Shown piece after piece: positions 30,213 to 51,826 of a stretch of DNA of 64,000 nucleotides. Position 1 is the stretch's first letter; the number at the start of each line of letters is the position of its first letter. Below the pieces are notes generated by a model. That model made no database searches and was not told the origin of the DNA. It saw only the letters and a list, made by a program, of their open reading frames with translations. This stretch comes from an uncultured Bacteroidales bacterium (GTDB taxonomy: Bacteria; Bacteroidota; Bacteroidia; Bacteroidales; WCHB1-69). The stretch covers positions 4,605 through 68,604 of the forward strand of contig CALGTS010000058.1 of NCBI GenBank assembly GCA_937901925.1. Direction: 5' to 3'. Both the position numbers and the translations under genes were made by a program.

Positions 30213-30231
30213 AAGGAATTAATTGAGGTTG

Positions 30232-31906: not shown

Positions 31907-31908
31907 AA

Positions 31909-33048
31909 TTATTTTGTATTAATGTTAAACAACTCGCTTTCCAACAAAAATTGAAGAGCCTTTTCTTCTGTTAAACCTAAATGGCTATCTTGCAACGAGA
32001 ACGACAAAATACCGTGCTCCTCGCATTTTGCTTTTGCAATATCCGTCATCTTTGCATCTGTGACAAACACCCCCTTACTACCCATGCCTCCATAGTTTTT
32101 AATAACACTACGAAATTTATCAATATCTGTTATGTTATTAATCTGCGTCTTGCACTCTACAAACAGCACTTTAGAACCTGTATTTACAACTATATCTGCT
32201 TCGTTTTTATCTACGTCTTTTTTGTACGGAAATTTGCAATTCATACAAATCTCCTTGCTTCTACTCCACGTACTGAGATATTTTGCCACTTTAAATTCAA
32301 ACCAACCACTATTAAACGCCAAATCCACTGCATTAGTAGACTCTAACTTGACCTCTTTTGACTTTCCGTTCTTTTTTATCAGAAAAACACGCACAAAGCC
32401 ATCTTGTTGTTCTGTAGTCTTTTCCCACTCCACATAAGAGCCCGAAATATGTTCAAACTTACCATATTTACAATTCTTTAAAATGTGCTGTTTTTGTTTA
32501 TCTAAAACGGTCAACAATGCATTAAATGTCTGAACAGCAAAATTTCTAATCTCCTCAATTTTCTTCATTGCTTCAACATCTGCTTCGGTGTAATCTGAGA
32601 ACTTTTTATAATTATTCTCTATAGAATTGCCATAAAGCCGAAAGTGGGTATGCATATCAAACTCAAACTCTTGCAATCCTTGCATTGTTCTATAATTCCA
32701 CAATACATTATTCTGGTCCATATAGACTATAGTAGCATTTTCCTTAGATTGGAACATTACACCAAATAGATGAGACCACGACTTCGGACCACTTGAAATA
32801 TTGACAACAACTTCATCTTTCGCGTATTGTTCTGCCAACTTTTTAACCACCTTTTGTATTTCTACGGCTTCCGTAGGCGATAATTGAACCGACTCATAAG
32901 GAACATTTATCTCCTTGATTAACGCATTCAAAGCCTTAAGACTATCTATCGAATGCACAAATACAACTTTATCTGGATTTGTTGCCTTTATCCCATTATA
33001 CACTGGAGCTGGCTGTCCTCCTACTAATGTTATGTGTATTTTACTCAT
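31909..33048 (-). CDS. Can2/Card1-like cOA effector #3: divergent CARF + PD-(D/E)xK nuclease
   Basis: MSKIHITLVGGQPAPVYNGI...VNISSGPKSWSHLF (CARF-like, with the GGT motif replaced by SGP). NSGWFEFKVAKYL, then EADIVVNTGSKVLFVECKTQ (D-x13-E-x-K). ORF-track start 33066 trimmed. Confidence 0.65.
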   Translation of the reverse strand: MSKIHITLVGGQPAPVYNGIKATNPDKVVFVHSIDSLKALNALIKEINVPYESVQLSPTEAVEIQKVVKKLAEQYAKDEVVVNISSGPKSWSHLFGVMFQSKENATIVYMDQNNVLWNYRTMQGLQEFEFDMHTHFRLYGNSIENNYKKFSDYTEADVEAMKKIEEIRNFAVQTFNALLTVLDKQKQHILKNCKYGKFEHISGSYVEWEKTTEQQDGFVRVFLIKKNGKSKEVKLESTNAVDLAFNSGWFEFKVAKYLSTWSRSKEICMNCKFPYKKDVDKNEADIVVNTGSKVLFVECKTQINNITDIDKFRSVIKNYGGMGSKGVFVTDAKMTDIAKAKCEEHGILSFSLQDSHLGLTEEKALQFLLESELFNINTK

Positions 33049-33052
33049 AAGC

Positions 33053-33631
33053 TTACATTTTTTCACACAACCTCAATGCCAACCCAGACCACAACTCAAA
33101 TTTTTCCAAATTTAGTTCTTTCGGATTTTCCCATTGGGGCAAACCGATTTCTGCGTCAAATCTCATCTGTCCCACTGCTACATTCACTCGAAAAACTACT
33201 CCGGTATGACAATGTCCTACCGATGTCTCCTCTTCGTTTATCATGCCCAACAACTCCACATCGCTATCATGCAAGGAAACGCCTACCTCCTCTCTAAACT
33301 CTCGCTTCAAACCTTGCAAAAGGGTGTTGTAAGGTGTTAACTGTTTATCTCCGTCTGTCACATGTCCGCCAATGCCTGCCGAACGGATTCCCTTCAATCG
33401 TTTTTCACTACCACATCTCTGATAGGTTAACACTTGCCCCTTTGCATTAAACACCAATGCATACGCTATCAATTGCTTGTATGTATAATCCTGCTCTAAA
33501 AATGCTCTTTTCTCAAAACACTGTGGCAATCTATTTAATTCCTCTACGGTTATTTGCCATGAGCACAAATTTAAATCAAATGCCAGCCGCATCTGCTCAA
33601 CTGGTACACATAATACATTTTCGTCTTTCAT
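33053..33631 (-). CDS. NUDIX hydrolase, translationally coupled to the CARF-adenosine deaminase
   Basis: 192 aa with a Nudix-box core ...GIGGHV...LLQGLKREFREEVGV. Its ATG overlaps the deaminase stop (ATGA at 33628-33631). Confidence 0.75.
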   Translation of the reverse strand: MKDENVLCVPVEQMRLAFDLNLCSWQITVEELNRLPQCFEKRAFLEQDYTYKQLIAYALVFNAKGQVLTYQRCGSEKRLKGIRSAGIGGHVTDGDKQLTPYNTLLQGLKREFREEVGVSLHDSDVELLGMINEEETSVGHCHTGVVFRVNVAVGQMRFDAEIGLPQWENPKELNLEKFELWSGLALRLCEKM

Positions 33632-35664: not shown

Positions 35665-35693
35665 AAATCTGCTTTAAAACACTTATTACTATC

Positions 35694-35993
35694 CTACAAC
35701 TCCATTACCTTTGGACAAGTTACTTTCAATATCTCCTTGCGAATATCATCAGGTACAACTCCGCCTCCATAATACCTCAAACTTACAACATTGGTTACAT
35801 TCTGTACCGTAAAATGCTTTTGTCTTATTTTAAATGAGCCACAACTTAATTCTACTTTTTTCCAAAACTGGTTACGTATATCGGTATAGAACACGTAAAA
35901 TATTGCAATATTAGCCATTGCTCTAACAGCTGATATAAAAACAACATAACTATTGAACCACTCCGAAATTACATCAAGAATATCTTTTTCCAT
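35694..35993 (-). CDS. Hypothetical 99-aa protein with one predicted TM helix
   Basis: ORF only. Hydrophobic segment YVVFISAVRAMANIAIFYVFY. Ends 29 nt upstream of the cad1 start. Confidence 0.35.
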   Translation of the reverse strand: MEKDILDVISEWFNSYVVFISAVRAMANIAIFYVFYTDIRNQFWKKVELSCGSFKIRQKHFTVQNVTNVVSLRYYGGGVVPDDIRKEILKVTCPKVMEL

Positions 35994-36030
35994 AACTTTA
36001 TTTTTTAAATCAAAATTCTATGCACATTCA

Positions 36031-37371
36031 TCATAACTCTTTCTCTAATATTCGCTCAATCTGTCCGACATAATAAAACGGAACATTAATCAACTTAAAT
36101 TGTTTTCCTTTGAAAGTTGTCACATTATCAACAGAATAAGGATTAGACCAAACTCTGATTGCGATGGCGTGCGGAGCTTTCTCCATAAAAAGATGCAACG
36201 ATTTGAGTTTAGCATTATGCCCAGACTTTACCTCTATTGGAACTACTAAATTTCTGAACTGATATAGAAAATCGACCTCGGCATCCGAGCCATCCTTATC
36301 TCTGCGCCAATAGTTATGACGAAGTGACACATCGTTGTCATACGCCACAAGCTCTTGGGCAACTATATGTTCTGCTATTCTACCTCTCCACACTTCACAT
36401 ATATCTTTTGCCGAAAAAACATCATCCTGAACCTTTGAGGCATAATTGACAATACCCGTATCCACCCACAACAATTTAGGGCGTTTCTTAAAATTAGGTA
36501 ATATCGGTATGTGAGTATCTGATGTGGGATAGACCAATTCTGTCAGCATGGCTTTTTCAATAATTTGGAAAGCCTCGCTCATTTCTCGCGACCGATAGTT
36601 AGAACCTCCAAAGCCTTCGAACGAAATGGTCTCTGCAGCGCACTGCCACCCATAAGTCATTATTGTACGTATCACCTTCACCATTGTTTTGCTACTTGTA
36701 TATTTCTCTACATCATCTTTGTAGGCTTGCAACAATGAATTGAACACGCTTGAACACGACAAGAGATCTCTTCGCTTTGCATATTGCATAATCACAGCAG
36801 GCATTCCGCCTACCAGAATATACTCGCGAAAAAGCTGCATTACTCGGTGATGTACAACAGAATCAACGTTGAAACTCGTTACAAGATTTCTATCAAAATC
36901 TTCGCCAATACCGTCCAAAAACTCCCAAAAAGAACATGGCCGTAAAGACATAAACTGCACTCGTCCTACAGGGAATGAAATTTTACGAACATCCATCACC
37001 GTCTCTAACAAAGAACCTGCCACTATTACATGAATATCCTTTGCCTCTTCGTAAAAATAGCGAAGAATTGCCACCGCTTTCTTAGAGTTTTGTATCTCAT
37101 CAATAAAAAGTAGCACAGAACCATCGATTTGTTCCTGTTTTTTATAGAAATAGATAGATTTCAACAATTGATGCACATCATCTGTCTGCTCAAACAATTC
37201 AGAATCTCGACTTCGTTCAAGATTAAGATACAAAAAAGTATCAAAATCCTTTGCAAACTCTTTCACCAAGGTTGTTTTACCAACTTGACGAACGCCCCTG
37301 ATTATTAAAGGTTTTCTATCTTCAGAACTTCTCCATTCTTTTAGTTTATTTATTGCCAATCTTCTTATCAT
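36031..37371 (-). CDS. AAA+ ATPase with C-terminal DUF4143 (PD-(D/E)xK-like) domain
   Basis: Walker A GVRQVGKTT, Walker B LLFIDEIQ, C-terminal DAEVDFLYQFRNLVVPIEVKSG. 446 aa. Confidence 0.8.
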   Translation of the reverse strand: MIRRLAINKLKEWRSSEDRKPLIIRGVRQVGKTTLVKEFAKDFDTFLYLNLERSRDSELFEQTDDVHQLLKSIYFYKKQEQIDGSVLLFIDEIQNSKKAVAILRYFYEEAKDIHVIVAGSLLETVMDVRKISFPVGRVQFMSLRPCSFWEFLDGIGEDFDRNLVTSFNVDSVVHHRVMQLFREYILVGGMPAVIMQYAKRRDLLSCSSVFNSLLQAYKDDVEKYTSSKTMVKVIRTIMTYGWQCAAETISFEGFGGSNYRSREMSEAFQIIEKAMLTELVYPTSDTHIPILPNFKKRPKLLWVDTGIVNYASKVQDDVFSAKDICEVWRGRIAEHIVAQELVAYDNDVSLRHNYWRRDKDGSDAEVDFLYQFRNLVVPIEVKSGHNAKLKSLHLFMEKAPHAIAIRVWSNPYSVDNVTTFKGKQFKLINVPFYYVGQIERILEKEL

Positions 37372-37641: not shown

Positions 37642-38766
37642 TTATTCCTGTAATGATAATTTTACAAATCCCAATAACTCACAAACATCATCAACTCTTC
37701 TTGTCTTTGGAAAATCATACTCACTATAGTTTTGGTTATTTGGTCGAGACACTGGAACTACAAGGCTTTCAAAATTATCTAAGTCTCTTGCCCATCCTCC
37801 AGTTATGAAGTTCCAACCAGAGCCATGACCTATGCGCAACACACACTCTTTCCCTTTGCCACAGTTCTGAGCTTCGTTCTTTATTGATTCAATCTTCTCC
37901 AAATAACACTCTACTTTATCTGAATCATCTCTATCTGACCGTTCTTTCCAATATTCCAATTCAAAATCTAATAAACGAATTGTGTGGTTATTAATTGCTT
38001 CGAATAAAGATTCATAGGATGACATAATATTAGGCAAATCGCCAATTGTAGACCATTTCTCTTTCGATTTATTATAACCTTCTACATTAAGCTTCATCTC
38101 AAACCTTGTTATATCTTCGGAAGGTAAAGCTTCAATCATTTGAGATTTACTTTTATCCCAAAAAATTTTTGATGTTCGCTCATTTATATTCACCATTCGC
38201 AAAGATACTGTATAACATTCCCCAAAATAAGCATCACCAACTTGCAGAAATCTGAAAACATCATTATTTGGGTCACTACCAAACAACTCCTTTTCTACCT
38301 TATTGGCATTTGTTTTTTTCTTACCATTGGCAGAAACATCTATTTTTCTTTCTGCATCATTGACATTCTCAGCAAGAGATGCAAGTATTGCTGTCCTAAT
38401 CGCTCCTTTTATCGAACTACCAGGTATGTACGGTTTACCCTGTCCGTTATGAATATGTTCCTTCAATGTGTCTCTCTCATGAGCTTCTGACCATTCCAGA
38501 ACTATACGTTTCGCATAATCTTCAACTTTAGCATTGGGAGCAAATCGTTTAACCACATTACCTGTGGATTCCTTACGTTCAATCGCCACCACCCAATCTT
38601 GAAGATGTTCTTCACCAATCAAATCCAACACTTTTTCAGGAGAAACTACCGCCAACACATAATTGTTGCCCATCTTTCCTTTCACAAAGTCAGAACCTAT
38701 TTGCAAAACCTCACCGGAGCCTATATGCACAGATGTCAAAGTTTTTATCTTAACTATTTTTTTCAT
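37642..38766 (-). CDS. csm5: Type III-A RAMP protein Csm5
   Basis: MKKIVKIKTLTSVHIGSGE... and KPYIPGSSIKGAIRTAI RAMP motifs. Last gene of the csm operon. ATGA overlap with the csm4 stop. ORF-track start 38841 trimmed. Confidence 0.8.
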   Translation of the reverse strand: MKKIVKIKTLTSVHIGSGEVLQIGSDFVKGKMGNNYVLAVVSPEKVLDLIGEEHLQDWVVAIERKESTGNVVKRFAPNAKVEDYAKRIVLEWSEAHERDTLKEHIHNGQGKPYIPGSSIKGAIRTAILASLAENVNDAERKIDVSANGKKKTNANKVEKELFGSDPNNDVFRFLQVGDAYFGECYTVSLRMVNINERTSKIFWDKSKSQMIEALPSEDITRFEMKLNVEGYNKSKEKWSTIGDLPNIMSSYESLFEAINNHTIRLLDFELEYWKERSDRDDSDKVECYLEKIESIKNEAQNCGKGKECVLRIGHGSGWNFITGGWARDLDNFESLVVPVSRPNNQNYSEYDFPKTRRVDDVCELLGFVKLSLQE

Positions 38767-39758
38767 ACTATATTCTTCTTTATAGGTACAACAAAAGGTT
38801 TCCCACTCCTGTAAATTGCATGCATCTTTTCGTTGTTCCACTCAGGCTTCAAGTTAACAATTGCACCTTCAAGATTTTTTGACGAAGTTATGACAGAGCC
38901 TACGTTAAACATATATACAGATTTTTTTCTCAAATGACGAAATCTTACCTCTTCACTACCCGAAATAAAACCTCCTCTAAGCAAAAGTTCATAACTCGAA
39001 TTTTCCAAATCTATACACTTCAACTCTTCTTCTGTTGGAACATATAAAGATAACAACATAAAGGAGTCCGCATCTTGCACATCCTGAACAATCTGCTTAT
39101 CAACTTTTTCTACCTCAAAACGTCCTCCTCCCACACTTCTGTCTGTCCCGATACCAATTTCTCCTAACTCCTCAAATAGAGTTTTCAATTCTATTTCAAG
39201 GTCATCTGGTGCGTCCAAGATACAATAAAGCCCCGCATTTTCACGAAAATAGGTCCAATCAAAAAAGAACGGTTCGGTCTTTCCATCTCCTCTCGGCACG
39301 CTCACTCGTTGATTCACTTGCGATTTTGAGGGCGAATCGAATTTCTCAAAAGCGCCTGCCGAAAGCAGATAATCTCCTTGCAACTGTTCTTCTTTAACTT
39401 CTATTTCTTTGCCTCTGATCAAATCTTGCCACAACAAGGAATCCACGAACTTCACCTTTTTCAGTTTTTTTCGATAAGCATGCTCTTCTTGACCTTTTAC
39501 ACGCACATTTAACCGACCTTGCACTTTTGGCAAAAAATAAAACTCGCCAAAATATGGGAAAGCAGAACTTACCACAAAAGACATCAAGAACGATTCTATA
39601 TCAGAAGATTTTCCCTTCTGAGCTCTTAAAGAAGCTAACGCAGACGACAAAGTATCGCTATGAAACACAGAAGAGGAGAAATCGTAATTCTCCTTTCCTG
39701 TACCGATATGCAGAGGAGTAAGATTCTTAAATTTTATTATAAATCTACTCATAATCAA
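38763..39758 (-). CDS. csm4: Type III-A Csm4 (Cas5-like RAMP)
   Basis: FKNLTPLHIGTGKENYDFSSSVFHSDTLSSALAS, a typical Csm4 N-terminus. Position between csm3 and csm5 with ATGA overlaps on both sides. Confidence 0.8.
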   Translation of the reverse strand: MIMSRFIIKFKNLTPLHIGTGKENYDFSSSVFHSDTLSSALASLRAQKGKSSDIESFLMSFVVSSAFPYFGEFYFLPKVQGRLNVRVKGQEEHAYRKKLKKVKFVDSLLWQDLIRGKEIEVKEEQLQGDYLLSAGAFEKFDSPSKSQVNQRVSVPRGDGKTEPFFFDWTYFRENAGLYCILDAPDDLEIELKTLFEELGEIGIGTDRSVGGGRFEVEKVDKQIVQDVQDADSFMLLSLYVPTEEELKCIDLENSSYELLLRGGFISGSEEVRFRHLRKKSVYMFNVGSVITSSKNLEGAIVNLKPEWNNEKMHAIYRSGKPFVVPIKKNIV

Positions 39759-40402
39759 TACTCTTTTACAACACCATTATCAATGTCAAGTCCTTCAAAC
39801 TTAATCTGACCATATCCACGTGAGCCATGACCACCCAAATAGTCGTCTTCTAACAATTCAATTGCCTGTTTAAGCGTCTTCTTCAGTTCTTTTTCATCTT
39901 CACCTTCAAATACATTCAACACCATGTTTAATTTAAACTTAGCCCCAGCCGGAACACGTTCAAACGTACGCGGATTTGCCTTAGCCGTTACTCTATCAAT
40001 TGCAACTTCCGTCTTACTTTCTGTATAAGGCAAGTCTGTATTACTAAAATCACAAGCATCAACATCCAACTCTGCATCTCTAACAATCAGACGAGATGGT
40101 CTGTTATTATCAGAACCTGTTGCAACACCAAACAACTTTCCAGAAACCGAATCTGGATCCTTACTTGGTCCTACTTTTCCTCTGTCAACTTCGACGCAAC
40201 CATTTGCAATCTCTACCAACGCACGCATCTTACCCTTCAAAGAACTGCCCGGAATATAGGGAATATTGTTAATAGGATTTCTAACCACAAACTTGTCCGG
40301 ACCTCCAATATTCAACGCTGCATTTGTACCTCCAATATGCAAACCTGTTTTTAGCACTATTGTGCCTGTATATAATATTTTCTTTACTAATTTCGTAGCC
40401 AT
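39755..40402 (-). CDS. csm3: Type III-A backbone RAMP Csm3 (Cas7), with Asn at the catalytic Asp position
   Basis: TGLHIGGTNAALNIGGPDKFVVRNPINNIPYIPGSSLKGKMRAL and C-terminal DDYLGGHGSRGYG. Collinear with S. epidermidis Csm3 as I recall it. Confidence 0.9.
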   Translation of the reverse strand: MATKLVKKILYTGTIVLKTGLHIGGTNAALNIGGPDKFVVRNPINNIPYIPGSSLKGKMRALVEIANGCVEVDRGKVGPSKDPDSVSGKLFGVATGSDNNRPSRLIVRDAELDVDACDFSNTDLPYTESKTEVAIDRVTAKANPRTFERVPAGAKFKLNMVLNVFEGEDEKELKKTLKQAIELLEDDYLGGHGSRGYGQIKFEGLDIDNGVVKEY

Positions 40403-40442
40403 ATTTTTACTTTTTATGATTTAACAAATTAAATAAAATAGA

Positions 40443-40928
40443 TTAATCTTTACCTCCGTTAGCTTTATGATAAGCCAAAACCGCCTCCATAAGATTGCAA
40501 AAATTCAAATAAGATTTCTGATTCGTAACATAAACAAAACACTCATCAAATAATTTTTTAAAAAGTTTGAGCCCTTCATTTTTTTCATCTCTTCCTAGTG
40601 CATAAGCAACTTTCGGTTTCAACAAATAAAAAGAGGACTTCTCCTTTTCAAATTCACCCATTTGAATTCTCTTTATTTCGCCGTACACATTACGAATTTT
40701 AGAGTTTGTAAGACCATTTTTTGCCATAAACTCGCCAACTTTTTCTGCAAAATCAACCAAATCTGGCGTTGCTCCATTTATAATCCACTCACGATTATAT
40801 GCAGGGTCTAATTTACTCCAAAACGTATCTGACTTAGACGATCTATCGCTTGAAGCAAAACCGCCCCCATTGTTACCTCCGTGAGGTCTGTCATTTCGTC
40901 TGTTTGTATTAAAATTCATATTACTCAT
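40443..40928 (-). CDS. csm2: Type III-A small subunit Csm2 (Cas11)
   Basis: 161 aa, helical, located between cas10 and csm3. Has a Gly/Asn-rich N-terminal extension. Confidence 0.7.
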   Translation of the reverse strand: MSNMNFNTNRRNDRPHGGNNGGGFASSDRSSKSDTFWSKLDPAYNREWIINGATPDLVDFAEKVGEFMAKNGLTNSKIRNVYGEIKRIQMGEFEKEKSSFYLLKPKVAYALGRDEKNEGLKLFKKLFDECFVYVTNQKSYLNFCNLMEAVLAYHKANGGKD

Positions 40929-40955
40929 AATATCTTTATTTAATTGATTAATACT

Positions 40956-43478
40956 CTATTTACTTCTATATTCTAACTCCGCCCAACGTGAAGCAAAAGC
41001 CCACAACTCAAGCGGATGATAATCTGAAACTATCGGTTCACCATTGAGTTTACCCTTGTTTTTGTCGCACACCTCTTTTATGCAATTGTCAATCATGTTA
41101 TTAACCTCCTCGCCCGCACTACGGGTCTTCATTCTGCTCAAATCATACGTCAACATCCAATATGTCTTCGTTCTGGTAATTTGATGTTTTTTCATTTCTG
41201 AATTTGCATAATGAGACATCACTTTTGAAATAAAAGACTTTGGCAATTTGTTTGAATCGAGCAACTTTACAATCTCTCCTTTCAGTTTCTCAACCGTTGT
41301 GAATTCCAAATCCCAATTCAACGGAAAATCCATAAAAGACAGTGCATTCTTATCAACTCCTTTTACAGAGTGACCTTTTGCCGCTTTCTCTTCTGTATCA
41401 CTCTCTTCCGCTCCTTTCATTATAGGATACGATGGAGAAATAATTGCGATTCCTCCAGACACAGAAAAGGCTTTGTTTTCACATGTAAACTCTCTAAAAT
41501 CCTCCTTTATTCGTTTTGCTATTTTTATTGTCACATCCCAACTTCCGACAACAAAGACATCATCACCTCCGCTATACACGATAAACGATTTCTCTGGAGC
41601 AACCTCTTTCCATATCGTATTAAGATAACCTGAGAAAAAGAAGTCGAAAGAACGGCTCAACGCCGCGTATCTCGACAGTGTTGCACGCTCAGACGGAATA
41701 CCTTGCTGGAAAATATGGCCTAGATTATCTACGTCCATCCTTAACACTCCCATTCTTGAAAAACGCCCTTCTTCATTTTTTGCGTCACACATCTCTTCAA
41801 AAGTGGAATTGTTAAACTCGTTTCCTCCATAAAAATCCAACGCATATATATTATTAATACCGTCCACTGTGTGCATAAAGTCACAATTTCCGTTCTTACC
41901 ATTCAGCGTAATTACCGTAACCTTGTCTGCCGAGGCTTTTAATTCCTCTTTCTTAGACTTCAAATCGTTATCATTTAGGAAATAATATGTAAAACCTAAT
42001 CCTAATGGCTCAATCTTAGTCATATTGCTCCAATATGACAAAGGTTCTCCATCTTTCACCACTAATAAATCTACATCTCTCAGTTTCTCTCCTATTTCTA
42101 TCTGTTTAGCTGTTGTTGGTTTCAGTATCAAAGAGTCTTTTTTTATCGGCTTTTCTGTTGCCAAAAACTCTTCTCCTGTTATAGTGTCTCTTTGTGCATC
42201 TCCTCCCTGCATCAATGGTTTAAAGAATTGCGAATAATTATCCTTAATCAACTGAGAAAACTTCGTATTCTTTTTTCGGTCTCTTAATTGGAACAACTTG
42301 CCCCAAACTTCTCCAAGCCCACCATTCTTGTGCATCAATGCATCCTCAGACAAACCTACACTATCTATCGCAACAAACAAAGATGTTCCGTGCGATTCAA
42401 ACAGCTTCTTTTCAATTGTCGAAACAGCCTCTTTAAGTTGTTCTTTTACATACTTAGTATTAGGAGCAAGAAGATAAAAGCCTCCGCCTGAATTATATAT
42501 AATATTTGCCTGAAACAAATTAAGTTGTTTCAACAAATACCTTACAACTGTATCAGATAACAATCTCAAATAGAACGACCTACCTTTCAGATTCTTACCT
42601 GCATATTTTGATACAATCTGGTATATATACGGCTGAATGCCACTAAAATCGGCTCCAACAAGCAAAAACGGCTCATCTCCTGCTTTTTCTCCTTTTTCAT
42701 AATCATACAAGCAAACAGAGAGCGCTGCAGTTGTTTTCAAATGATCATACAACGACACATCAGGGAAATTTATTGTACTTGCCGGAACACAACTCGTATA
42801 TTTCTGCAACAAATTCAACAATGTCTCAGCAAACGCTTTATAAGTATTTGCCTGTATAAATTTAAACTCTCCTATAAAAGCATTCCACAACGATAAATAA
42901 TCCGCCTCCTTCTCAAACTTTTCTTTGGGAAAACAATCTTTCGTCAGAGTGAGTTTTTCTATCGGTATATGTTGCCAATTTGTTTTACTCTCCAGCTCTG
43001 CATCTGACAATGATATTGTTTCCAATATCGACGTCATTCTTTTCTTCTTAAAAGAATCCCAACCGCTCTCTTCCTCATCTTGCGCATCTTTCATCGCAAC
43101 ATCAGAACTACGATCCATACCTGATGAAAGACAATCTGCCTTCTTAATCAATCTCCCCAAATCGGAAATTTGCTCTTCTGACAAATGATGTCCTGCTGCT
43201 AAATTAATAAGATTGTTCTTATCAGTCAAATCAGCAAAATTCGAACCTACAAGATTACGAAAAACAGCCATGTTATCTTCAATAAACTGGGCCGTCCATA
43301 ATACATGCTTATGAGAATAAGAACCTTTATAAAGAGGACAAAAAGTTGATTCTGTTTTGCAATATTCACTCAAAAACCGACTCTTGCTAACAGACCCCTT
43401 ATCCGCCCTCTGATAAAACTTACCGATATCATGCAACAGCGCCGCTAAATAAATATGTTCTCTAATTTTATCTTCCAT
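40956..43478 (-). CDS. cas10: Cas10/Csm1 with HD nuclease and cyclase (GGDD) domains
   Basis: 840 aa. N-terminal HD motif YLAALLHDIGKFY. Palm motif IVYSGGDDVFVVGSWD. Confidence 0.9.
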   Translation of the reverse strand: MEDKIREHIYLAALLHDIGKFYQRADKGSVSKSRFLSEYCKTESTFCPLYKGSYSHKHVLWTAQFIEDNMAVFRNLVGSNFADLTDKNNLINLAAGHHLSEEQISDLGRLIKKADCLSSGMDRSSDVAMKDAQDEEESGWDSFKKKRMTSILETISLSDAELESKTNWQHIPIEKLTLTKDCFPKEKFEKEADYLSLWNAFIGEFKFIQANTYKAFAETLLNLLQKYTSCVPASTINFPDVSLYDHLKTTAALSVCLYDYEKGEKAGDEPFLLVGADFSGIQPYIYQIVSKYAGKNLKGRSFYLRLLSDTVVRYLLKQLNLFQANIIYNSGGGFYLLAPNTKYVKEQLKEAVSTIEKKLFESHGTSLFVAIDSVGLSEDALMHKNGGLGEVWGKLFQLRDRKKNTKFSQLIKDNYSQFFKPLMQGGDAQRDTITGEEFLATEKPIKKDSLILKPTTAKQIEIGEKLRDVDLLVVKDGEPLSYWSNMTKIEPLGLGFTYYFLNDNDLKSKKEELKASADKVTVITLNGKNGNCDFMHTVDGINNIYALDFYGGNEFNNSTFEEMCDAKNEEGRFSRMGVLRMDVDNLGHIFQQGIPSERATLSRYAALSRSFDFFFSGYLNTIWKEVAPEKSFIVYSGGDDVFVVGSWDVTIKIAKRIKEDFREFTCENKAFSVSGGIAIISPSYPIMKGAEESDTEEKAAKGHSVKGVDKNALSFMDFPLNWDLEFTTVEKLKGEIVKLLDSNKLPKSFISKVMSHYANSEMKKHQITRTKTYWMLTYDLSRMKTRSAGEEVNNMIDNCIKEVCDKNKGKLNGEPIVSDYHPLELWAFASRWAELEYRSK

Positions 43479-43486
43479 ATTTTATA

Positions 43487-44179
43487 TCATTTTTTTACAT
43501 TTCTCTTCATCATTTTCACCATTCCCATGCCGAGGCTGGTACCTTTTCCCAGTCCGCAGAAGTCGGGTAAGGAGACGTTGGTCTTGAATTCCACGTCGAA
43601 ACTCATCATCTTGACACCCTTATAGAGTTCCAGACGGGGTTCCTCCATTTTTAAAATCTCACAAGTAATGTCTCGTTCAAGGCGTATGCCCAGACCTTTA
43701 CACATTGAGAGTATATTGCCCACCAAAATCCGCTGCAGGAACTCTGCCCGCGCAGCCAACCCTTCTAATTGTAAAAACTCATTGTAATTGTTAGAGTTAA
43801 AAGGTAACCATTTACGCAGGGTGTAACGAAAAGTGTCGTCCCACGCCTGCACTAAAATTTGCTTGGCATCTACACTGTCAATCTCAAAACGCTCCTGCTC
43901 TCGGTTGCCAATCTGCAAGTCGAAGTCGCACGACGAGAAGAACTCACCAATCGCCTCAACCCCATCACCAATACAAACTATTGCCGCCTTCCCACCAATC
44001 CGCTTATATTGTATCAGCGGATATGAGTAGCGCAAACCCTCTTCAGTATGACCACTAAAGAACTCATCGTGCGGAGTACCACAAACACGATCCAAAACTG
44101 CGCCACGGAAGAATCTAATCTCAGTTTGCCGTAATGGATTTTTAAATCTCACAACCAACAATTTAATTCTTGCACCCAT
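43487..44179 (-). CDS. cas6: Cas6-like crRNA endoribonuclease
   Basis: 230-aa RAMP-like protein with a C-terminal glycine-rich loop CGLGKGTSLGMGMV. First gene of the interference operon. Confidence 0.65.
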   Translation of the reverse strand: MGARIKLLVVRFKNPLRQTEIRFFRGAVLDRVCGTPHDEFFSGHTEEGLRYSYPLIQYKRIGGKAAIVCIGDGVEAIGEFFSSCDFDLQIGNREQERFEIDSVDAKQILVQAWDDTFRYTLRKWLPFNSNNYNEFLQLEGLAARAEFLQRILVGNILSMCKGLGIRLERDITCEILKMEEPRLELYKGVKMMSFDVEFKTNVSLPDFCGLGKGTSLGMGMVKMMKRNVKK

Positions 44180-44226: not shown

Positions 44227-44706
44227 TAGTTTTTTTTACAAATCTGAGTAAAATTTGAAATTTTCCAAAAAAAATCATAATTTTTAAAGCCAAATCTTTT
44301 CCCCAAAAAAACATTGATATTTTTTTGCAAAAGTTAGAAATAGGTCTCCACAGCAAAACGGAATTGGTCAATGAAAATTTGTTTAAATGCTGAGATCTTA
44401 TTTTGCTCATAAAATAGCAGCATAGCTTTAATACTTTCAACATTTAATTTTTGCAATAAATCGACTCGCAAGAATAGCCAAATCGACTTAATTGCGCAAT
44501 AAAAATGAGCCGATCATTTAAAAATGAGCTGATTGTATTTTTTTCACACTTTCCTTTCTTTAATCAAAAAAATTGTAACAATTCTATGATAATTTCGCTT
44601 TTTTTATAAATTTGCAACTTTGTTTAAAATTTCCAAATAATGATGGAAACTCTTATTCATATAGAAAATCTATTTGTGGTATTGTATTAAGAAATAATAT
44701 TTTACA

Positions 44707-46755
44707 ATGTTAATAAACTTCTCTAATTATCCTTCCCAAAAGTGGAGCGCCGAACAATTAGCTCAAGCAAAGAAACAATTTGGCGGCGTAACAGACCTAA
44801 AATTTCCCAATGTAAATCCCAATTGCACAGAATCTGATATTGCAAACCTGACCAATATCTTCTATCAGAAAATTCAGAAAATTGTAAAAAACATAAAAAG
44901 AACGGAAGAGATTACCGTTCTTATTATGGGCGAAAGCACGCTCACCTTTACCCTACTCACACGACTTTTAGGTTCAGGTATTCCTTGCGTGGCTTCTTGT
45001 TACCAAATCGATACAATTAAAAATGAGAATGGTAAAAAAGAGAGTATTAGGAAATTTGTAAAATTCAGATACTACAATAGTTATACTCAACCGAAGGCGG
45101 ATTCTAACATTATAAAAGCGGTTTGTCCCCAGCTGACACCTCCTATTGTAAAGGGAAAGATTGACCTTGATACATTAAAACAGGAGACAAGGCCGATCAA
45201 GAAGAGTCAGCAGCCACCTATTACTCCCCCTTTGCCCACTCTTCCTAAAAGCCTAAAAGATATAAAACTCACCGCCCATCAAAAAGAGGCGTTAGATAGT
45301 ATAAAGCGATTTATTAACGATGATAGTAAACGCATTTTTATTCTGAAGGGATTTGCGGGTACAGGAAAAACTACACTTACACGTTTTCTTTTAGAACATC
45401 TTAAAAAGGAGAAAATTGATGTTTCTCTTATGGCACCTACTGGACGAGCAGCCAAGATTCTATCTAACCTTAGCAATTATCCAGCGGCTACCATTCACTC
45501 TAGTATTTATAAGTTCAACGATTTAAACAAAGATTTACCAGAGGAAAAATTAGAGGAGTTAACTGCCGACCAAACTGGACAGTTGTATCTTACTTTCTAC
45601 CCTACTCGAACAACTTTTGATGATCAGTATAAAGGGAAAATCTATATTATTGATGAAGCCTCAATGATTTCTGACATAGAAGAGCTTTTGATATCGCAAG
45701 CAAAATATGGTAGTGGCAAGTTACTCACTGAACTATTGGAATATGACAAACACCCCAAAAGCAAATTTATCTTTATTGGAGACCCGTGTCAATTGCCACC
45801 CATACGCGGGCTTGAATCTCCCGCATTATCACCAAGTTACTTGCAAAAACATTTTAATTGCAGTGCCGATGAGTTCACGTTAACTGAAATTATGCGACAA
45901 GCAGGCGATAGCGACTTGATTATGGCGACAAAAAAAATCCGCGAACTCCGAGAAAATGCCCCTTTGGAAGAGGATTCATTTTCTGACTCCTGGGCACGAC
46001 TACCGTTAAGAGACTGCAAAGAAACCCATATTTATCCTGACATTGATTCTATGTTAGGAAAACATATCGAATTGATCAAAAGTAATGGCTATAATGATTC
46101 TATATTTATTTGCGGAAGCAATAGGAGGAGAAACCAATATTCTGCAAAAATCAGAAGAAGTTTGGGATTTTCCTCCCCACAAGTTGAAAAAGGCGATTTA
46201 CTGATGGTAATTCAAAACAATATACCTACGGGATTACTTAATGGTGATATGGTTGAGGTTCTTCGTGTCGATTCTCAACGCACCTATAGAGCCAATTGCA
46301 CATTTATCAATATTCACGTCAGAGAACTATTTACCCCAAAAGAACACAATGTACTACTAATGGAACAGCCCTTAAACCACAACTCTCTCAATATCAGCAC
46401 CGATATGCAAACAAACCTATTTATAGACTTTGCTCAAAGGATGAATAAAAATGGAATCACCCAAAATAAACATCCAAAAGAGTTTCAGAAAGCCTTAATG
46501 GAAGACCCCTATTTAAATGCTTTACGTTGCCACTACGGATACGCCATAACGTGCCATAAAGCGCAAGGGGGCGAATGGAACAATGTGTTTATTGATTTTG
46601 GACTAAATATAAAAAATCCAACCCAAGAGAAATACCAATGGATCTATACTGCAGTTACAAGAGCCAGAACGGGACTACACGTATTAGACAAACCTTATAT
46701 TTGCAACTTGGACGGAACCTTAGGAACTCCTTTTTACGAAACGATTTTTTTATAA
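44707..46755 (+). CDS. SF1 RecD/Dda-like helicase (AAA_30 + UvrD_C_2-like) with N-terminal orphan domain paralogous to ORF 30306..30671
   Basis: Residues 1-125 run MLINFSNYPSQKWSAEQ...IMGESTLTFTLLTRL...PCVASC...FVKFRYYN. A Pro-rich linker follows. Helicase motifs: GFAGTGKTT (Walker A), MAPTGRAAKIL, IYIIDEASMIS, FIFIGDPCQLPPI, GYAITCHKAQGGEW, YTAVTRAR. Confidence 0.8.
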   Translation: MLINFSNYPSQKWSAEQLAQAKKQFGGVTDLKFPNVNPNCTESDIANLTNIFYQKIQKIVKNIKRTEEITVLIMGESTLTFTLLTRLLGSGIPCVASCYQIDTIKNENGKKESIRKFVKFRYYNSYTQPKADSNIIKAVCPQLTPPIVKGKIDLDTLKQETRPIKKSQQPPITPPLPTLPKSLKDIKLTAHQKEALDSIKRFINDDSKRIFILKGFAGTGKTTLTRFLLEHLKKEKIDVSLMAPTGRAAKILSNLSNYPAATIHSSIYKFNDLNKDLPEEKLEELTADQTGQLYLTFYPTRTTFDDQYKGKIYIIDEASMISDIEELLISQAKYGSGKLLTELLEYDKHPKSKFIFIGDPCQLPPIRGLESPALSPSYLQKHFNCSADEFTLTEIMRQAGDSDLIMATKKIRELRENAPLEEDSFSDSWARLPLRDCKETHIYPDIDSMLGKHIELIKSNGYNDSIFICGSNRRRNQYSAKIRRSLGFSSPQVEKGDLLMVIQNNIPTGLLNGDMVEVLRVDSQRTYRANCTFINIHVRELFTPKEHNVLLMEQPLNHNSLNISTDMQTNLFIDFAQRMNKNGITQNKHPKEFQKALMEDPYLNALRCHYGYAITCHKAQGGEWNNVFIDFGLNIKNPTQEKYQWIYTAVTRARTGLHVLDKPYICNLDGTLGTPFYETIFL

Positions 46756-46764
46756 AAATAGATT

Positions 46765-47748
46765 ATGGAACTTATAATCAGCACTTTTGGCACATCACTC
46801 AACCGTGAAAATGAAGGTTTTGTCATCACTACAACAGAAGGAAGACAGCGCATTCCGGCAGAAGGAATTACCTCGATTCAAATTAGTCGTGGCGCGCAAA
46901 TCTCTTCCGATGCGGTAATGTTAGCAATGGAAAAAGAGATTGAGGTGCTATTTATGGATAAAAATGGCAATGTAACAGGCAGAATCTGGAGCCCCAAATA
47001 TGGTTCTGTTTCCACAATACGCAAAGGGCAGCTCAATTTCTCATTCTCTACAGAAGCTATCCGATGGATCAAAGAGGTTATCTGCCAAAAAATTGAAAAC
47101 CAACAAGCCCTGCTGCTCACTTTTGAGAGTTCTGACATTATGATTCAGAATCACGTTCAGAAATCGATACGCAGGCTAGAAGATTACCGCACGAAAGTTT
47201 CCACCATCAACGGAGAGGTAATCTCGGATATAGCCTCCACTTTAAGAGGTTGGGAGGGATTATCGTCGAAAATCTATTTTGAAACGCTAAACCTTTTTCT
47301 TCCAGAACAATACCGTTTTGAAAAAAGAAGTCAACATCCTGCTACCGATGTTGCAAATGCATTTCTGAACTACGGCTACGGCGTTCTATACGGGAAAGTA
47401 GAGGGCGCACTCATCAAAGCAGGCATTGACCCATATATTGGAGTTTTACACCGCGACGACTACAACCGCCCCGTATTGGTGTATGACGTCATCGAACTCT
47501 ATCGCGTTTGGGTTGATTATGTAGTTTTTACCCTTTTAACCCAAAATGTAATTACTGATGAATTCTATTCTGTACAATCAGATGGCTCCTATTGGTTAGA
47601 ATCTTTAGGAAGACGAGTACTGATACAATCGCTAAACGATTATTTGGAAGAAACTATTGAAGTAAATGGAAATAGTCGTTCTCGTGCCTATCAAATTTTT
47701 CTATATGCTCAGAAGCTAGCACAACAATTTAAAAAAGCAGAACGATGA
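46765..47748 (+). CDS. cas1: Cas1 integrase
   Basis: 327 aa. NAFLNYGYGVLYGKVEGALIKAGIDPYIGVLHRDDYNRPVLVYDVIELYR, the Cas1 C-terminal catalytic region. Confidence 0.9.
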   Translation: MELIISTFGTSLNRENEGFVITTTEGRQRIPAEGITSIQISRGAQISSDAVMLAMEKEIEVLFMDKNGNVTGRIWSPKYGSVSTIRKGQLNFSFSTEAIRWIKEVICQKIENQQALLLTFESSDIMIQNHVQKSIRRLEDYRTKVSTINGEVISDIASTLRGWEGLSSKIYFETLNLFLPEQYRFEKRSQHPATDVANAFLNYGYGVLYGKVEGALIKAGIDPYIGVLHRDDYNRPVLVYDVIELYRVWVDYVVFTLLTQNVITDEFYSVQSDGSYWLESLGRRVLIQSLNDYLEETIEVNGNSRSRAYQIFLYAQKLAQQFKKAER

Positions 47749-48761
47749 TACTATTTGGCAAAAACATAATTTCTTCGGGAGATGTTTTGACCAAAGTTCC
47801 TATTGTCAAAATCTTCCATGCGCTTAAAAATCCCAAAAGCGAAACGATTGCTCAAATTCGGCAACTCCGGATTGTTAGAAAGATAGATATCAAACGATAT
47901 AATACTCTCAAACGGCAACTTCCCTACTTCGTTTGTGGAATCTTCACACCACCACTTCGAAAAAGTGAAAACTTTGCCTACATTGAATATTTCATTCTAG
48001 ATATTGATAAAATTACCGAAAAAGGTCTCAGTGTTCAAGATTTACGCCAAAAGATAGAGAAAGATAATCGTGTTTTGCTCTGTTTCATTTCACCAAGTGA
48101 AGATGGTATTAAAATCCTATTCAAATTAAAAGAACGTTGCTACGACAAAGGTATTTTCTCGTTGTTTTACAAAACATTTGCCCAGCAATTTGCTCGACAA
48201 TACAACATTGAGCAGGTAATTGATAATCAAACTTGCGATGTAACGCGCGCTTGCTTTGTTAGCATTGACCCTCAAGCCTACTACAATCCTAATGCAGCAA
48301 CGATAGAAATTGAAAAATTCTTACAAATTAACAATCCTACAGAGATGTTTGATATCAAACATCAATTTGAAATTCAAGAAAAAGAACATAGAAAAGAGAT
48401 TGTAACTCCTGTTTCAGAAAAAGTTGATGTGGACGATGAGGTGATTCGGAATGTCAAGATGATTTTAAACCCCAAACTAGCACAGAAAGAGGAGAAAAAA
48501 GTATATATCCCCGAGCAGCTAACGGATATTATGGAAGAGTTGCAGAAATATATCACGGCAACAGGCATTCAGATTACAGAAATCATCAACATATCATACG
48601 GAAAAAAGATACGAATGAAATCACGCACCAAGCAGGCAGAGGTAAATGTTTTCTATGGAAAGAGAGGATTTTCTGTAGTAAAATCTCCACGAAGTGGAAC
48701 TAATGAAGAACTTAACGAACTGATGGCATCGCTTATACAATCATTTTTTGACCAAAACTAA
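47745..48761 (+). CDS. CRISPR-associated Prim-Pol (CAPP-like; archaeo-eukaryotic primase superfamily, BT4734/VirE-N-like)
   Basis: AEP-like motifs YFILDIDK (DxD), FISPSEDGIKILFKL and CDVTRACFVSIDPQAYYN. Its ATG overlaps the cas1 stop (ATGA), and its stop lies 4 nt before the cas2 ATG. Confidence 0.65.
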   Translation: MILFGKNIISSGDVLTKVPIVKIFHALKNPKSETIAQIRQLRIVRKIDIKRYNTLKRQLPYFVCGIFTPPLRKSENFAYIEYFILDIDKITEKGLSVQDLRQKIEKDNRVLLCFISPSEDGIKILFKLKERCYDKGIFSLFYKTFAQQFARQYNIEQVIDNQTCDVTRACFVSIDPQAYYNPNAATIEIEKFLQINNPTEMFDIKHQFEIQEKEHRKEIVTPVSEKVDVDDEVIRNVKMILNPKLAQKEEKKVYIPEQLTDIMEELQKYITATGIQITEIINISYGKKIRMKSRTKQAEVNVFYGKRGFSVVKSPRSGTNEELNELMASLIQSFFDQN

Positions 48762-48765: not shown

Positions 48766-49257
48766 ATGCCGAGAAAAAAGAAACCGCCACTTACTTTTGT
48801 GGAGAAGATGAAAAAACTATATGCCGCAGGATTAAAACCGACGGAAGTTTCGGAGATTGCATCTGATGACATTGACTCCAACCAATCGTTACTTCCGTTA
48901 GAGAAAAGAGTTGAGCTATTATTTAATATTGTAAAGAATAAAAAAAGGGCAGCCACACAGATGTTATTTTTTGTAATGTATGATATAGAGAGCAATCGAG
49001 TTCGTCGGCAGATTGTCAAATATTTAGAGCGGCAAGGATGCACCCGGGTGCAGAAATCTATTTTTCTTGCAGACTTACCGATTTCGCAGTACGAACAGAT
49101 AAAATCGGATTTAGCGGAAGTGCAAGCTTGTTATGAAAACTTTGATAGTATTTTGGTAGTACCTATTTCAACTGATTACCTCAAAGCGATGAAAGTTATC
49201 GGGCAAAGCATCAATGTAGATGTAATTACCAAAAGTTCCAATACACTATTTTTCTAA
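48766..49257 (+). CDS. cas2: Cas2 with ~65-aa N-terminal extension
   Basis: Cas2 core MLFFVMYDIESNRVRRQIVKYLERQGCTRVQKSIFLADL. Preceded by MPRKKKPPLTFVEKMKKLYAAGLKPTEVSEIA... (HTH-like). The TTG at 48748 is an alternative start. Confidence 0.8.
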   Translation: MPRKKKPPLTFVEKMKKLYAAGLKPTEVSEIASDDIDSNQSLLPLEKRVELLFNIVKNKKRAATQMLFFVMYDIESNRVRRQIVKYLERQGCTRVQKSIFLADLPISQYEQIKSDLAEVQACYENFDSILVVPISTDYLKAMKVIGQSINVDVITKSSNTLFF

Positions 49258-49410: not shown

Positions 49411-51826
49411 CTCCAAGAGCAACTTCCACTAAAATAAGGATTAAGACTTCTGCGCAAATCGTGATTGCTACGCTCGAATCCTTTACTCCAAGAGCAACTT
49501 CCACTAAAATAAGGATTAAGACCCCCACCATAAAAAACACTAAAAATGGAAAAAAACGAGAAGCTCCAAGAGCAACTTCCACTAAAATAAGGATTAAGAC
49601 TGTTCATTTCGTTTGCGTTTGCGGTGCTGTTTACAGCTCCAAGAGCAACTTCCACTAAAATAAGGATTAAGACCATTTAGTCCTAAGTATAATGTGTGTT
49701 TTTTCATAACCTCCAAGAGCAACTTCCACTAAAATAAGGATTAAGACTTCATAAAAATGGCACTATCCTTTACATCTTGTTGTCTCCAAGAGCAACTTCC
49801 ACTAAAATAAGGATTAAGACTCTTATAAATGTATTGTTCCGCATAGAATAGACACCTCCAAGAGCAACTTCCACTAAAATAAGGATTAAGACTTCAATTC
49901 TCAGTGTTTTTTCGAAAACAACTGTACCGTCTCCAAGAGCAACTTCCACTAAAATAAGGATTAAGACTTTTTTTATTGTTTTATTAAGGTTGATCACAGC
50001 AATTCTCCAAGAGCAACTTCCACTAAAATAAGGATTAAGACTGTTATTATTAAGGTCGATCACATTCATCTTGTAGTCTCCAAGAGCAACTTCCACTAAA
50101 ATAAGGATTAAGACCCACCTCTGCCAACGTGGAATAGAAAATGTTTTTCTTGCTCCAAGAGCAACTTCCACTAAAATAAGGATTAAGACTGTGAACTTAC
50201 TATAATTATTTTCATAATATAATACGACTCCAAGAGCAACTTCCACTAAAATAAGGATTAAGACTCTATCTCTCTTTCTATCAATCTTTTAGCCAAAGTC
50301 TCCAAGAGCAACTTCCACTAAAATAAGGATTAAGACAGGGTAAGCATTTACCACCCCTAATTTTATTAGTCTTCTCCAAGAGCAACTTCCACTAAAAAAA
50401 GGATTAAGACCTTACGGGAATTTCCCGAACAGACAGATTTTTCTGCCTCCAAGAGCAACTTCCACTAAAAAAAGGATTAAGACTTCGTAAGTTTTTTTAT
50501 CTGGCACTCCGCCATTACCTCCAAGAGCAACTTCCACTAAAAAAAGGATTAAGACTATGTCGTTATAAGTACAAAATTCAAAATCGTTTAAGCTCCAAGA
50601 GCAACTTCCACTAAAAAAAGGATTAAGACTGCTCGGTCAAAACCTCGTGCCAGCTTGGATCAGTATATTCTCCAAGAGCAACTTCCACTAAAATAAGGAT
50701 TAAGACGAGAAGTATATTTTAAAAAATCATTCATAAATTAATAAGGCTCCAAGAGCAACTTCCACTAAAATAAGGATTAAGACGTAACACACAAACGTCC
50801 ATCCTTGATGCTCCCTTGCAGACTCCAAGAGCAACTTCCACTAAAATAAGGATTAAGACCTATATTTTGATAAGTCATTCATATTAATATGGCAAACCCT
50901 CCAAGAGCAACTTCCACTAAAATAAGGATTAAGACGTTCAAATCTTTTGATGTAATAAACCACCTGCACAAGCCTCCAAGAGCAACTTCCACTAAAATAA
51001 GGATTAAGACATTGATTTTGCTATCGAATTGTTTGAAAATGTTACCTCCAAGAGCAACTTCCACTAAAATAAGGATTAAGACATTTCATAGTTACGATTT
51101 AATACCATAAAATCAAGCGTCTCCAAGAGCAACTTCCACTAAAATAAGGATTAAGACAAGCAATATTCGCCGTGCTGGCGAACTGATGCACCTTTTAACT
51201 CCAAGAGCAACTTCCACTAAAATAAGGATTAAGACGGGTCTATGTATGTTGTAAAGTCCTTAATCGGTAGTCTCCAAGAGCAACTTCCACTAAAACAAGG
51301 ATTAAGACGTTGTTATTATTGTTGTTTTTTTACACTGCAAAGATCTCCAAGAGCAACTTCCACTAAAATAAGGATTAAGACTATTATTTTTCTTTATATT
51401 TTTGATAAGTTCCGTCTTCTCCAAGAGCAACTTCCACTAAAATAAGGATTAAGACTTCATCAAACATATAACTCATATCAGTGATATCTCCAACCTCCAA
51501 GAGCAACTTCCACTAAAACAAGGATTAAGACTGCTTATATCGTCAGTTATATACCATCGACCCATCGCTCCAAGAGCAACTTCCACTAAAATAAGGATTA
51601 AGACCCTTGTATCCATAGGTTCTACCTTTAAATACGATAACTCCAAGAGCAACTTCCACTAAAACAAGGATTAAGACTCTTGCGTATTTGCATAATAATT
51701 TTTGAATATGTCGTCTCCAAGAGCAACTTCCATTAAAACAAGGATTAAGACAATAACAAATCTTTTTCGTTCTGTGTCATAATTAATGCCTCCAAGAGCA
51801 ACTTCCACTAAAATAGATATTTAGGA
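49411..51826 (+). CRISPR. CRISPR array: 33 repeats of 37 nt, 32 spacers of 35-41 nt
   Basis: Repeat is CTCCAAGAGCAACTTCCACTAAAATAAGGATTAAGAC. First repeat at 49411-49447. The last (51790-51826) is degenerate in its 3' half. The 3' octamer ATTAAGAC resembles the type III crRNA 5' tag. I enumerated all repeat starts by hand. Confidence 0.97.

Follow-up and report, generated by a model that had tools for sequence, protein, structure and literature searches.

Helicases and ring nucleases in type III CRISPR systems

The supply of prespacers in type III CRISPR systems, as well as any coupling between acquisition and interference, is still poorly understood. Zabrady et al. (2021; Nat Commun 12:3690, PMC8211822) defined the CAPP_B class of the CRISPR-associated primase-polymerases (CAPP), which is almost confined to type III loci of Bacteroidetes, and characterised the enzyme of a Dysgonamonadaceae bacterium (Db), which primes and polymerises DNA and whose gene lies between cas1 and cas2. 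A helicase-cas1-CAPP_B-cas2 operon with a 'putative RecD-like helicase' was drawn in the same paper (Fig. 1c), and DbCas1 was found to interact with both DbRecD and DbCAPP by yeast two-hybrid (Fig. 8e,f), which is so far the one result supporting a role of the helicase in such an operon; beyond that paper, no further link of CAPP with a RecD-like helicase was found in the literature searched. Here, a 64,000-nt stretch of DNA from an uncultured Bacteroidales bacterium, hereafter the window, to which all coordinates below refer, was analysed with a focus on the helicase gene at 44707..46755 (+). This gene heads a helicase-cas1-CAPP_B-cas2-CRISPR operon in a type III-A system signalling through cyclic tetra-adenylate (cA4), and its product carries at the N-terminus a domain that probably belongs to the Csx20 ring-nuclease family. 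It is best read, with a confidence that stands midway between doubt and conviction, as an adaptation-module helicase with a Csx20-derived, cA4-linked regulatory module. The fusion of a domain from a cA4-destroying family may hint at a coupling of alarm signalling and spacer acquisition.

Csx20 itself was reportedly predicted as a ring nuclease by Makarova and colleagues in 2020. Its cA4-specific ring-nuclease activity was later shown for one representative (Hoikkala et al., 2025; PMC12409355; bioRxiv 10.1101/2024.09.24.614671), in a paper that mentions neither helicases nor adaptation, just as Csx20 is absent from the text of Zabrady et al. (2021). Fusions of ring nucleases with effectors are known, namely Csx1-Crn2, Csx1-Csx20 and Crn3-AAA ATPase. 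A helicase at the head of the cas1-primase-polymerase-cas2 operon is already known as well, since it was described by Zabrady et al. (2021, Fig. 1c), so that the departure from usual type III adaptation modules that the first-pass annotation of the window had seen in this arrangement is not new. The coupling of Csx20 with the helicase, the independent fusions and the degenerate active site reported below appear to be unreported in the literature searched, which did not extend to the CARF classification of Makarova et al. (2020).

Architecture of the Csx20-helicase fusion protein

The helicase open reading frame (ORF) starts with an ATG, has zero internal stops and encodes 682 aa. From the N- to the C-terminus, the protein is composed of the Csx20-family domain, i.e. 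a CARF-like ring-nuclease family domain (aa 1-125; 44707..45081 (+)), a Pro/Lys/Thr-rich linker of ~60 aa, predicted as disordered (aa 126-185; 45082..45261 (+)), and a superfamily 1B (SF1B) helicase core of the Dda/RecD2-like kind (aa 186-682; 45262..46755 (+), stop codon included).

Regarding the N-terminal domain, its description as CRISPR-linked in the first-pass annotation proved right as to its existence, the PADLOC Csx20 profile PDLC01397 matching aa 1-123 across its full length (positions 1-114 of 114; E 8.4e-25, 85.6 bits), but too generic as a label, the domain probably belonging to the Csx20 cA4 ring-nuclease family, which points to cyclic-oligoadenylate (cOA) signalling. The PADLOC fusion profile CARF_HEPN_CSX20 also matches this domain, which can be aligned over its whole length with stand-alone Csx20-like proteins (41-50% identity), the helicases and the short Csx20 proteins having been aligned separately (alignments A4, A5). 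The Pfam family PF27247 (MJ1673) is present in the precomputed annotation of the homologues P0001-P0003, which are 76-97% identical to the window protein, and the NCBIfam Csx20 model (NF040559) scores 18.9 bits on the window domain, under its cutoff of 70. The AlphaFold2 (AF2) model of the domain, computed with 60 homologues, has a predicted local distance difference test score (pLDDT) of 92.8 and displays a Rossmann-like beta-alpha-beta topology together with a long hairpin. Searched with Foldseek, this model returned weak matches (best E 5.6e-4, template modelling (TM) scores of 0.4-0.5), the top two being a lobe of ribose-binding protein and the others including SAVED sensors, the CARF domains of Cam1, Csm6 and Cad1, and the ring nuclease Crn1 Sso2081; a profile search of the PDB with the Csx20 alignment gave zero matches. 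In the AF2 model of the full-length protein, pLDDT falls under 50 over residues 109-178. The linker is low in complexity and differs in length among the fused homologues, P0003 reaching 741 aa.

Regarding the helicase core, the superfamily 1 (SF1) motifs quoted as intact in the first-pass annotation were all located in the ORF, i.e. Walker A (motif I) GTGKTT (aa 218-223; nt 45358-45375 (+)), motif II DEAS (aa 316-319; nt 45652-45663 (+)), motif III GDPCQLPP (aa 358-365; nt 45778-45801 (+)), motif V CHKAQGGEW (aa 616-624; nt 46552-46578 (+)) and motif VI TAVTRAR, with the arginine finger (aa 648-654; nt 46648-46668 (+)). The SF1B motif columns are invariant over 59 homologues and the window protein retains all family-invariant columns. 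In Pfam, aa 186-660 match AAA_30 (4e-21), UvrD_C_2 (6e-16), AAA_19 and PIF1, over a range of 4e-21 to 3e-10, and the PDB sequence search matched Dda of L. ferriphilum, RecD2, T4 Dda and DSH9. The core is modelled by AF2 at a pLDDT of ~90, and Foldseek retrieved with it DSH9 (2.8e-23), T4 Dda (1.8e-21), RecD2 (6.6e-19), as well as RecD within RecBCD and Pif1 (to 1e-12), in keeping with a fold of two RecA-like domains and Dda/RecD2-type accessory domains. The RecD/Dda-like SF1 identity proposed at first pass is thereby refined to SF1B, an assignment that is solid because family and structure matches all agree and from which a 5'->3' polarity can be predicted. The best NCBIfam model is RecD2 (TIGR01448; 1e-33), but its 116.5 bits lie far under the equivalog cutoff of 500, so that the helicase is RecD2-like and not a RecD2 orthologue. 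Besides, the PADLOC profile typeIV_RecD gives a partial match of 105 bits.

State of the presumed active site

All 120 stand-alone Csx20 homologues compared have H8, H72, M77, R101 and F115, and nearly all of them T98 and T99. Judging from the model, in which strand 1 leads into a loop with H8 and the third strand is followed by an MGE turn immediately preceded by H72, these two residues would stand at the place where ligands bind in CARF-type domains, and H8, H72 and R101 may be the catalytic or cA4-site residues of Csx20. At these positions, the fused domain of the window carries Y8, L72, S77, C98, Y99, I101 and R115. In P0003, which belongs to an earlier branch of the fused clade, both histidines are kept and position 101 is a lysine; H8, H72 and R101 have been lost progressively within this clade. 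Since the invariant His/His/Arg set is lost, the window domain probably no longer cleaves cA4, and a ring-nuclease activity is made doubtful by the lost residues together with the score under the NCBIfam cutoff. The nonsynonymous to synonymous substitution ratios (dN/dS) among the three fused genes range over 0.09-0.26 for the domain and 0.11-0.14 for the helicase, which indicates that the fused domain is under purifying selection and not decaying. In other words, it is maintained, though probably inactive as a catalyst.

A stand-alone Csx20 paralogue is encoded 14 kb from the helicase, at 30306..30671 (-) (PADLOC Csx20, 128 bits), and keeps H8, H72, M77, T98, T99, R101 and F115. Its gene sits amid three Card1/Can2-like CARF nuclease genes arranged in tandem. 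It is unusual for a locus to have two Csx20-type domains, as a survey of ring nucleases reported more than one ring nuclease in only ~4% of the ring-nuclease-positive loci.

Fused and split genes

Over 7,700 proteins are homologous to the helicase at E<=1e-10, and among them the N-terminal extension is found in only three clusters at 90% identity (P0001-P0003, 97-76% identical to the window protein), the remaining homologues being of ~490 aa. In the closest unfused relatives (L003-L008), a separate Csx20-like gene of 114-130 aa overlaps the helicase start by 4-8 nt and is followed, after the helicase, by cas1-CAPP_B-cas2; this overlap suggests translational coupling. When 1.84 billion cluster representatives were searched exhaustively with the window domain, the lineage of the window itself was recovered together with one second fusion, P0286 (L170:10001-11914), i.e. 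a Csx20::SF1B-helicase protein of 637 aa, 37% identical overall to the window protein, in which H8, H72, M77, T98, T99, R101 and F115 are all kept. The gene of P0286 also precedes cas1-CAPP_B-cas2, its locus belonging to another type III variant, in which Cas10 is short. Since the helicase of P0286 is about equally distant from the window helicase and from many unfused helicases, and since a neighbour-joining tree nests the fused clade of the window among unfused helicases, the Csx20-helicase fusion arose at least twice.

These data also bear on a reading in which the fusion of two overlapping genes was incidental, the Csx20 part being a catalytically dead appendage, which would at best help dimerisation or solubility, on a helicase with no link to cA4. 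The rarity of the fusion in the window lineage (three clusters at 90% identity, 0/80 species genomes, 0/80 metagenome loci) would fit such an accident, as would the stepwise loss of H8, H72 and R101 in a clade where P0003 keeps both histidines, the intact Csx20 paralogue in the same locus and the long, low-complexity and variable linker. Yet purifying selection on the domain is as strong as on the helicase, the independent second fusion, in a distant lineage, has all its invariant residues intact, and in most split loci the two genes are kept together and overlap. An incidental fusion is thus held to be rather unlikely.

Of note, the Csx20 domain is found in other unusual proteins. In P0243, P0260, P0271, P0311, P0353, P0368 and the product of L014:11469-12995, all of 500-566 aa, an N-terminal Csx20 domain is followed by a C-terminal part of ~380-440 aa with no Pfam match, and in L014, a locus with no cas1, a fusion gene of this type comes directly after the helicase. 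P0241 (293 aa) contains the Csx20 domain twice in tandem, possibly as a single-chain pseudo-dimer, and in P0335 the domain is joined to a family-2 glycosyltransferase. The locus of P0286 also has a gene for a reverse transcriptase, just downstream and in opposite orientation.

Linkage of the helicase with cas1, CAPP_B and Csx20

Linkage was evaluated by scanning one genome per GTDB species with the helicase alignment, which gave 80 loci, nearly all from Bacteroidota, whose flanks were searched by hidden Markov models and phmmer. Co-occurrence with cas1 and the primase-polymerase gene had been named as a check in the first-pass annotation: of the 80 species loci, 52 have cas1 no further than 10 kb from the helicase, 39 have it directly downstream, and CAPP_B is nearby in 50. 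A Csx20 domain is encoded near the helicase in 56/80 loci and directly adjacent in 46, type III effector genes are found nearby in 40, and at least one CRISPR gene within 10 kb in 67; none of the 80 loci harbours a fused Csx20-helicase ORF. The helicase stands directly upstream of cas1-CAPP_B-cas2, on the same strand, in the window, in L001-L008 and in 37/80 species loci, and the six homologue loci examined individually are consistent with the synteny of this census. Among the GTDB species representatives, no helicase is more than 55% identical to that of the window.

In a reverse census, metagenomes were scanned with CAPP_B as query and 59 loci had enough upstream sequence. All 59 have cas1 adjoining CAPP_B, 31 have the helicase upstream of cas1, 45 have a Csx20 domain and 0 have a fused Csx20-helicase ORF. 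On one metagenome locus, L090 (JGI contig Ga0233362_1000076), CAPP_B is 100% identical to that of the window, and this contig probably comes from the same organism.

These counts dispose of the idea of a housekeeping DNA-repair helicase, i.e. a RecD2 or Pif1 orthologue standing beside CRISPR genes by chance. Relatives at 35-43% identity do occur in housekeeping contexts, beside recG or aspS, and RecD2 is the best NCBIfam match; but CRISPR genes stand within 10 kb in 67 of the 80 closest relatives at species level, the RecD2 model reaches 116 bits where its cutoff asks for 500, and the protein is fused to a CRISPR-specific domain. The synteny counts effectively refute this explanation, which is left as highly improbable.

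An adaptation-module helicase under a cA4-linked module has several other observations weighing against it, in addition to these housekeeping relatives and to the weak matches (best E 5.6e-4, TM 0.4-0.5) of the fold search with the N-terminal domain. In the accessible literature, no paper assigns the catalytic residues of Csx20. In 28/59 evaluable CAPP_B-cas1-cas2 modules there is no helicase, which is therefore not required for this machinery, and a sub-lineage of the helicase (L009, L014, L017, L020, L032) adjoins type III effector and Csx20-fusion genes with no adjacent cas1. Besides, 24 of the 116 Csx20 domains in the loci are the C-terminal part of a Csx1/HEPN-like effector of ~570 aa, several of these effector genes lying immediately upstream of the helicase or of cas1, and Csx20 is also found directly before cas1 where the helicase is missing. 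Because of these Csx1/HEPN-Csx20 and helicase-less cases, the adjacency of Csx20 and helicase may partly reflect a conserved operon order, in which ancillary genes come before the adaptation module. The dedicated adaptation helicase put forward at first pass is thus partly supported: its linkage to cas1 is conserved, but the helicase is optional (31/59 CAPP_B modules) and a sub-lineage lacks an adjacent cas1.

Alternatively, the Csx20-helicase pair could be an ancillary effector or interference regulator of cA4 signalling and not an adaptation factor, found beside cas1 by operon order only; it could for example be a cA4-gated motor acting on invader DNA or replication forks, or a helper of the Card1/Can2 nucleases. 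The helicase adjoins a Csx20 domain (46/80) more often than cas1 (39/80), the whole sub-clade mentioned above keeps the pair among effector and ancillary genes with no adjacent cas1, and ring-nuclease domains are known in the effector fusions Csx1-Crn2, Csx1-Csx20 and Crn3-AAA. Moreover, the core scores 419 bits against the PADLOC candidate defence protein PDC-M16A, covering positions 6-490 of the 721 of this profile and leaving the C-terminal part unmatched; no paper on PDC-M16 was found in the literature searched. Against an ancillary effector, loci with cas1 nearly always have the helicase gene as the next one upstream of it, in the same orientation and only a few nt away, both independent fusions are directly before cas1-CAPP_B-cas2, and binding to Cas1 was reported by yeast two-hybrid (Zabrady et al., 2021). 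On balance, this ancillary role is considered unlikely. Regarding the pair itself, three observations argue for a real coupling of Csx20 and helicase without amounting to proof: the fusion has recurred, start and stop codons overlap, and the two genes stay together where cas1 is absent.

Besides, L065 encodes, directly downstream of cas2 (15860-17914), a further helicase of this family that is long (~685 aa) and whose C-terminal extension resembles PDC-M16A; the upstream helicase gene of this locus is frameshifted.

Possible role in spacer acquisition

As an adaptation-module helicase, the core would be a DNA-unwinding accessory subunit of the Cas1-Cas2-CAPP machinery and may have a prespacer-generating role. 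Moving 5'->3' on single-stranded DNA, it would expose template for priming and fill-in by CAPP, the products of which would be passed to Cas1-Cas2 as prespacers. The Csx20 module, normally a separate subunit, would act as a dimerising regulatory partner tying the helicase to the cA4 signal of Cas10, so that the helicase may be regulated by cA4. In the window, the fused module could still bind cA4 or could simply tether two motors, and the ring-nuclease job would be taken by the intact stand-alone Csx20 (30306-30671).

A stronger form of this proposal, in which Csx20 and the SF1B helicase are a cA4-responsive unit switching on or timing spacer acquisition upon detection of invader RNA by Cas10, is put forward tentatively and as improbable on present data. 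cA4 would then gate a helicase feeding DNA to CAPP_B and Cas1-Cas2, this DNA may have been pre-nicked by the co-encoded, cA4-activated Card1/Can2 nucleases, and the ring-nuclease activity of Csx20 would serve as an off-timer, the window variant being a sensor-only version.

The interest of the system lies in that the helicase has no neighbour more constant than a domain of a cA4 ring-nuclease family, which in most cases overlaps the helicase start codon and became fused to the helicase on at least two occasions. This raises the hypothesis that cOA signalling may talk to the adaptation machinery. In the stronger form given above, type III systems would have a 'primed-like' adaptation pathway coupled to a signal; if the link is one of gene order only, the finding reduces to a further member of a known operon. 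Natural variants are at hand, i.e. a fused domain with an apparently dead site in the window, a fused domain with an intact site in P0286, and many split pairs.

Operon and surrounding locus

Downstream of the helicase, cas1 (46765..47748 (+); Pfam Cas_Cas1 3e-67, TIGR00287 242 bits) follows on the same strand after a gap of 9 nt, close to the 10 nt given at first pass. It is followed by CAPP_B (47745..48761 (+)), which matches NCBIfam NF040562 PrimPol_Db with 433 bits for a cutoff of 200, as well as Pfam BT4734-like_N. The next gene is cas2 (48766..49257 (+)), whose mechanical ORF begins at 48748 and whose likely start is the Met at 48766, with the Cas2 domain at aa 72-169 of that ORF. The window Cas2 bears an N-terminal extension of ~65 aa, which looks conserved since Cas2 is of 157-165 aa in the other CAPP_B operons examined. 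A CRISPR array lies at 49411..51751 (+), with 32 repeats of 37 nt (CTCCAAGAGCAACTTCCACTAAAATAAGGATTAAGAC) and spacers of 35-41 nt; in the middle of the array (50373-50639), four consecutive repeats have the common variant AAAAAAAGG in place of AAATAAGG.

Regarding CAPP_B, its aa 257-330 (48513-48734 (+)) give a weak, sub-cutoff Pfam match to TBP-TOTE (TATA-binding-like), and its C-terminus gives weak PADLOC cross-matches to the C-terminal part of the PDC-M16A helicase profiles. The latter could be a Rosetta-stone link of the helicase with the primase-polymerase, but they were not reproduced by jackhmmer over all 170 loci.

On the other strand, the divergence from cas6-cas10 recognised at first pass is borne out by a complete, divergent type III-A effector operon (37642..44179 (-)) composed of cas6 (43487-44179 (-)), cas10/csm1 (40956-43478 (-)), with HD and GGDD motifs present, csm2, csm3, csm4 and csm5. 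It is followed by cOA-signalling ancillary genes (29049..37371 (-)), namely an AAA_14/DUF4143 ATPase gene (36031-37371 (-)), the gene of a Cad1-like CARF-adenosine deaminase of 678 aa (33628-35664 (-)), a NUDIX hydrolase gene (33053-33631 (-)) and the three Card1/Can2-like CARF nuclease genes (31909-33066, 30671-31906 and 29049-30212 (-)). The GGDD motif of Cas10, the three Card1/Can2-like nucleases and the CARF-deaminase speak for a cA4 context of the locus. The ATPase scores 591 bits against PDC-S01, a single-gene defence candidate of PADLOC, and is found again in L001, L005 and L026, and the deaminase-NUDIX gene pair (33053-35664 (-)) is also found in L005/L006. Between the ATPase gene and csm5, a 34-nt tandem repeat is present in 2.4 copies (37382-37461).

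In the divergent promoter region between cas6 and the helicase, a candidate Bacteroidetes-type -7 box, TAAATTTG, is located at 44607..44614 (+), ~93 nt upstream of the helicase ATG; the Bacteroidetes -7 pattern was used and not a sigma-70 scan, since the hosts are Bacteroidota. This promoter call is positional only, because the pattern is not enriched within the window (89 found vs. 78 expected). A 19-nt direct repeat in two copies (44598-44636), which could be an operator, overlaps the box. In the same region, an ORF of 85 aa at 44186-44443 (-) was treated as spurious, having no family match and no homologue in related loci and overlapping the likely cas6 promoter.

Comparison with known systems

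The closest relative is the RecD-like helicase of the Db CAPP_B operon, which has the same operon layout in a type III locus of Bacteroidota and belongs to the same SF1B family. For sequence comparison, its place was taken by a Dysgonamonadaceae metagenome-assembled genome (L043), whose homologue is 45% identical to the window helicase, with the same layout. By comparison, the window helicase has the fused Csx20 domain and the linker, whereas in L043 Csx20 is the C-terminal part of the preceding gene, of 574 aa. The window domain resembles stand-alone Csx20 proteins by its full-length match to the PADLOC Csx20 profile, by the cA4-type effectors at the locus and possibly by its modelled Rossmann-like topology, but these proteins are of ~120 aa, while the window domain is part of a helicase protein and its invariant residues are lost.

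As for the core, T4 Dda, Deinococcus RecD2 and DSH9 have the same SF1 motifs and fold (Foldseek 1e-23 to 1e-17, target-normalised TM 0.5-0.68), but are only ~18-20% identical to the window helicase, which differs from them by its CRISPR context and its Csx20 domain. Compared with the PDC-M16A profile, the window protein lacks ~230 C-terminal positions and has an N-terminal Csx20 domain instead. Other helicases are likewise tied to CRISPR, namely Cas3 in type I, CasDinG and the type IV RecD-like helicase, and RecBCD in naive adaptation; the analogy of a motor generating prespacers applies to the window helicase, yet these are of other families or sub-families, CRISPR types and locus positions, and none has a Csx20 or CARF-like domain. 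Finally, the known ring-nuclease/effector fusions follow the same logic as the window protein, that is a domain binding and degrading cA4 covalently joined to a presumably regulated protein; in the window, however, the domain looks catalytically dead and its partner is not a nuclease effector but an SF1B helicase heading an adaptation operon.

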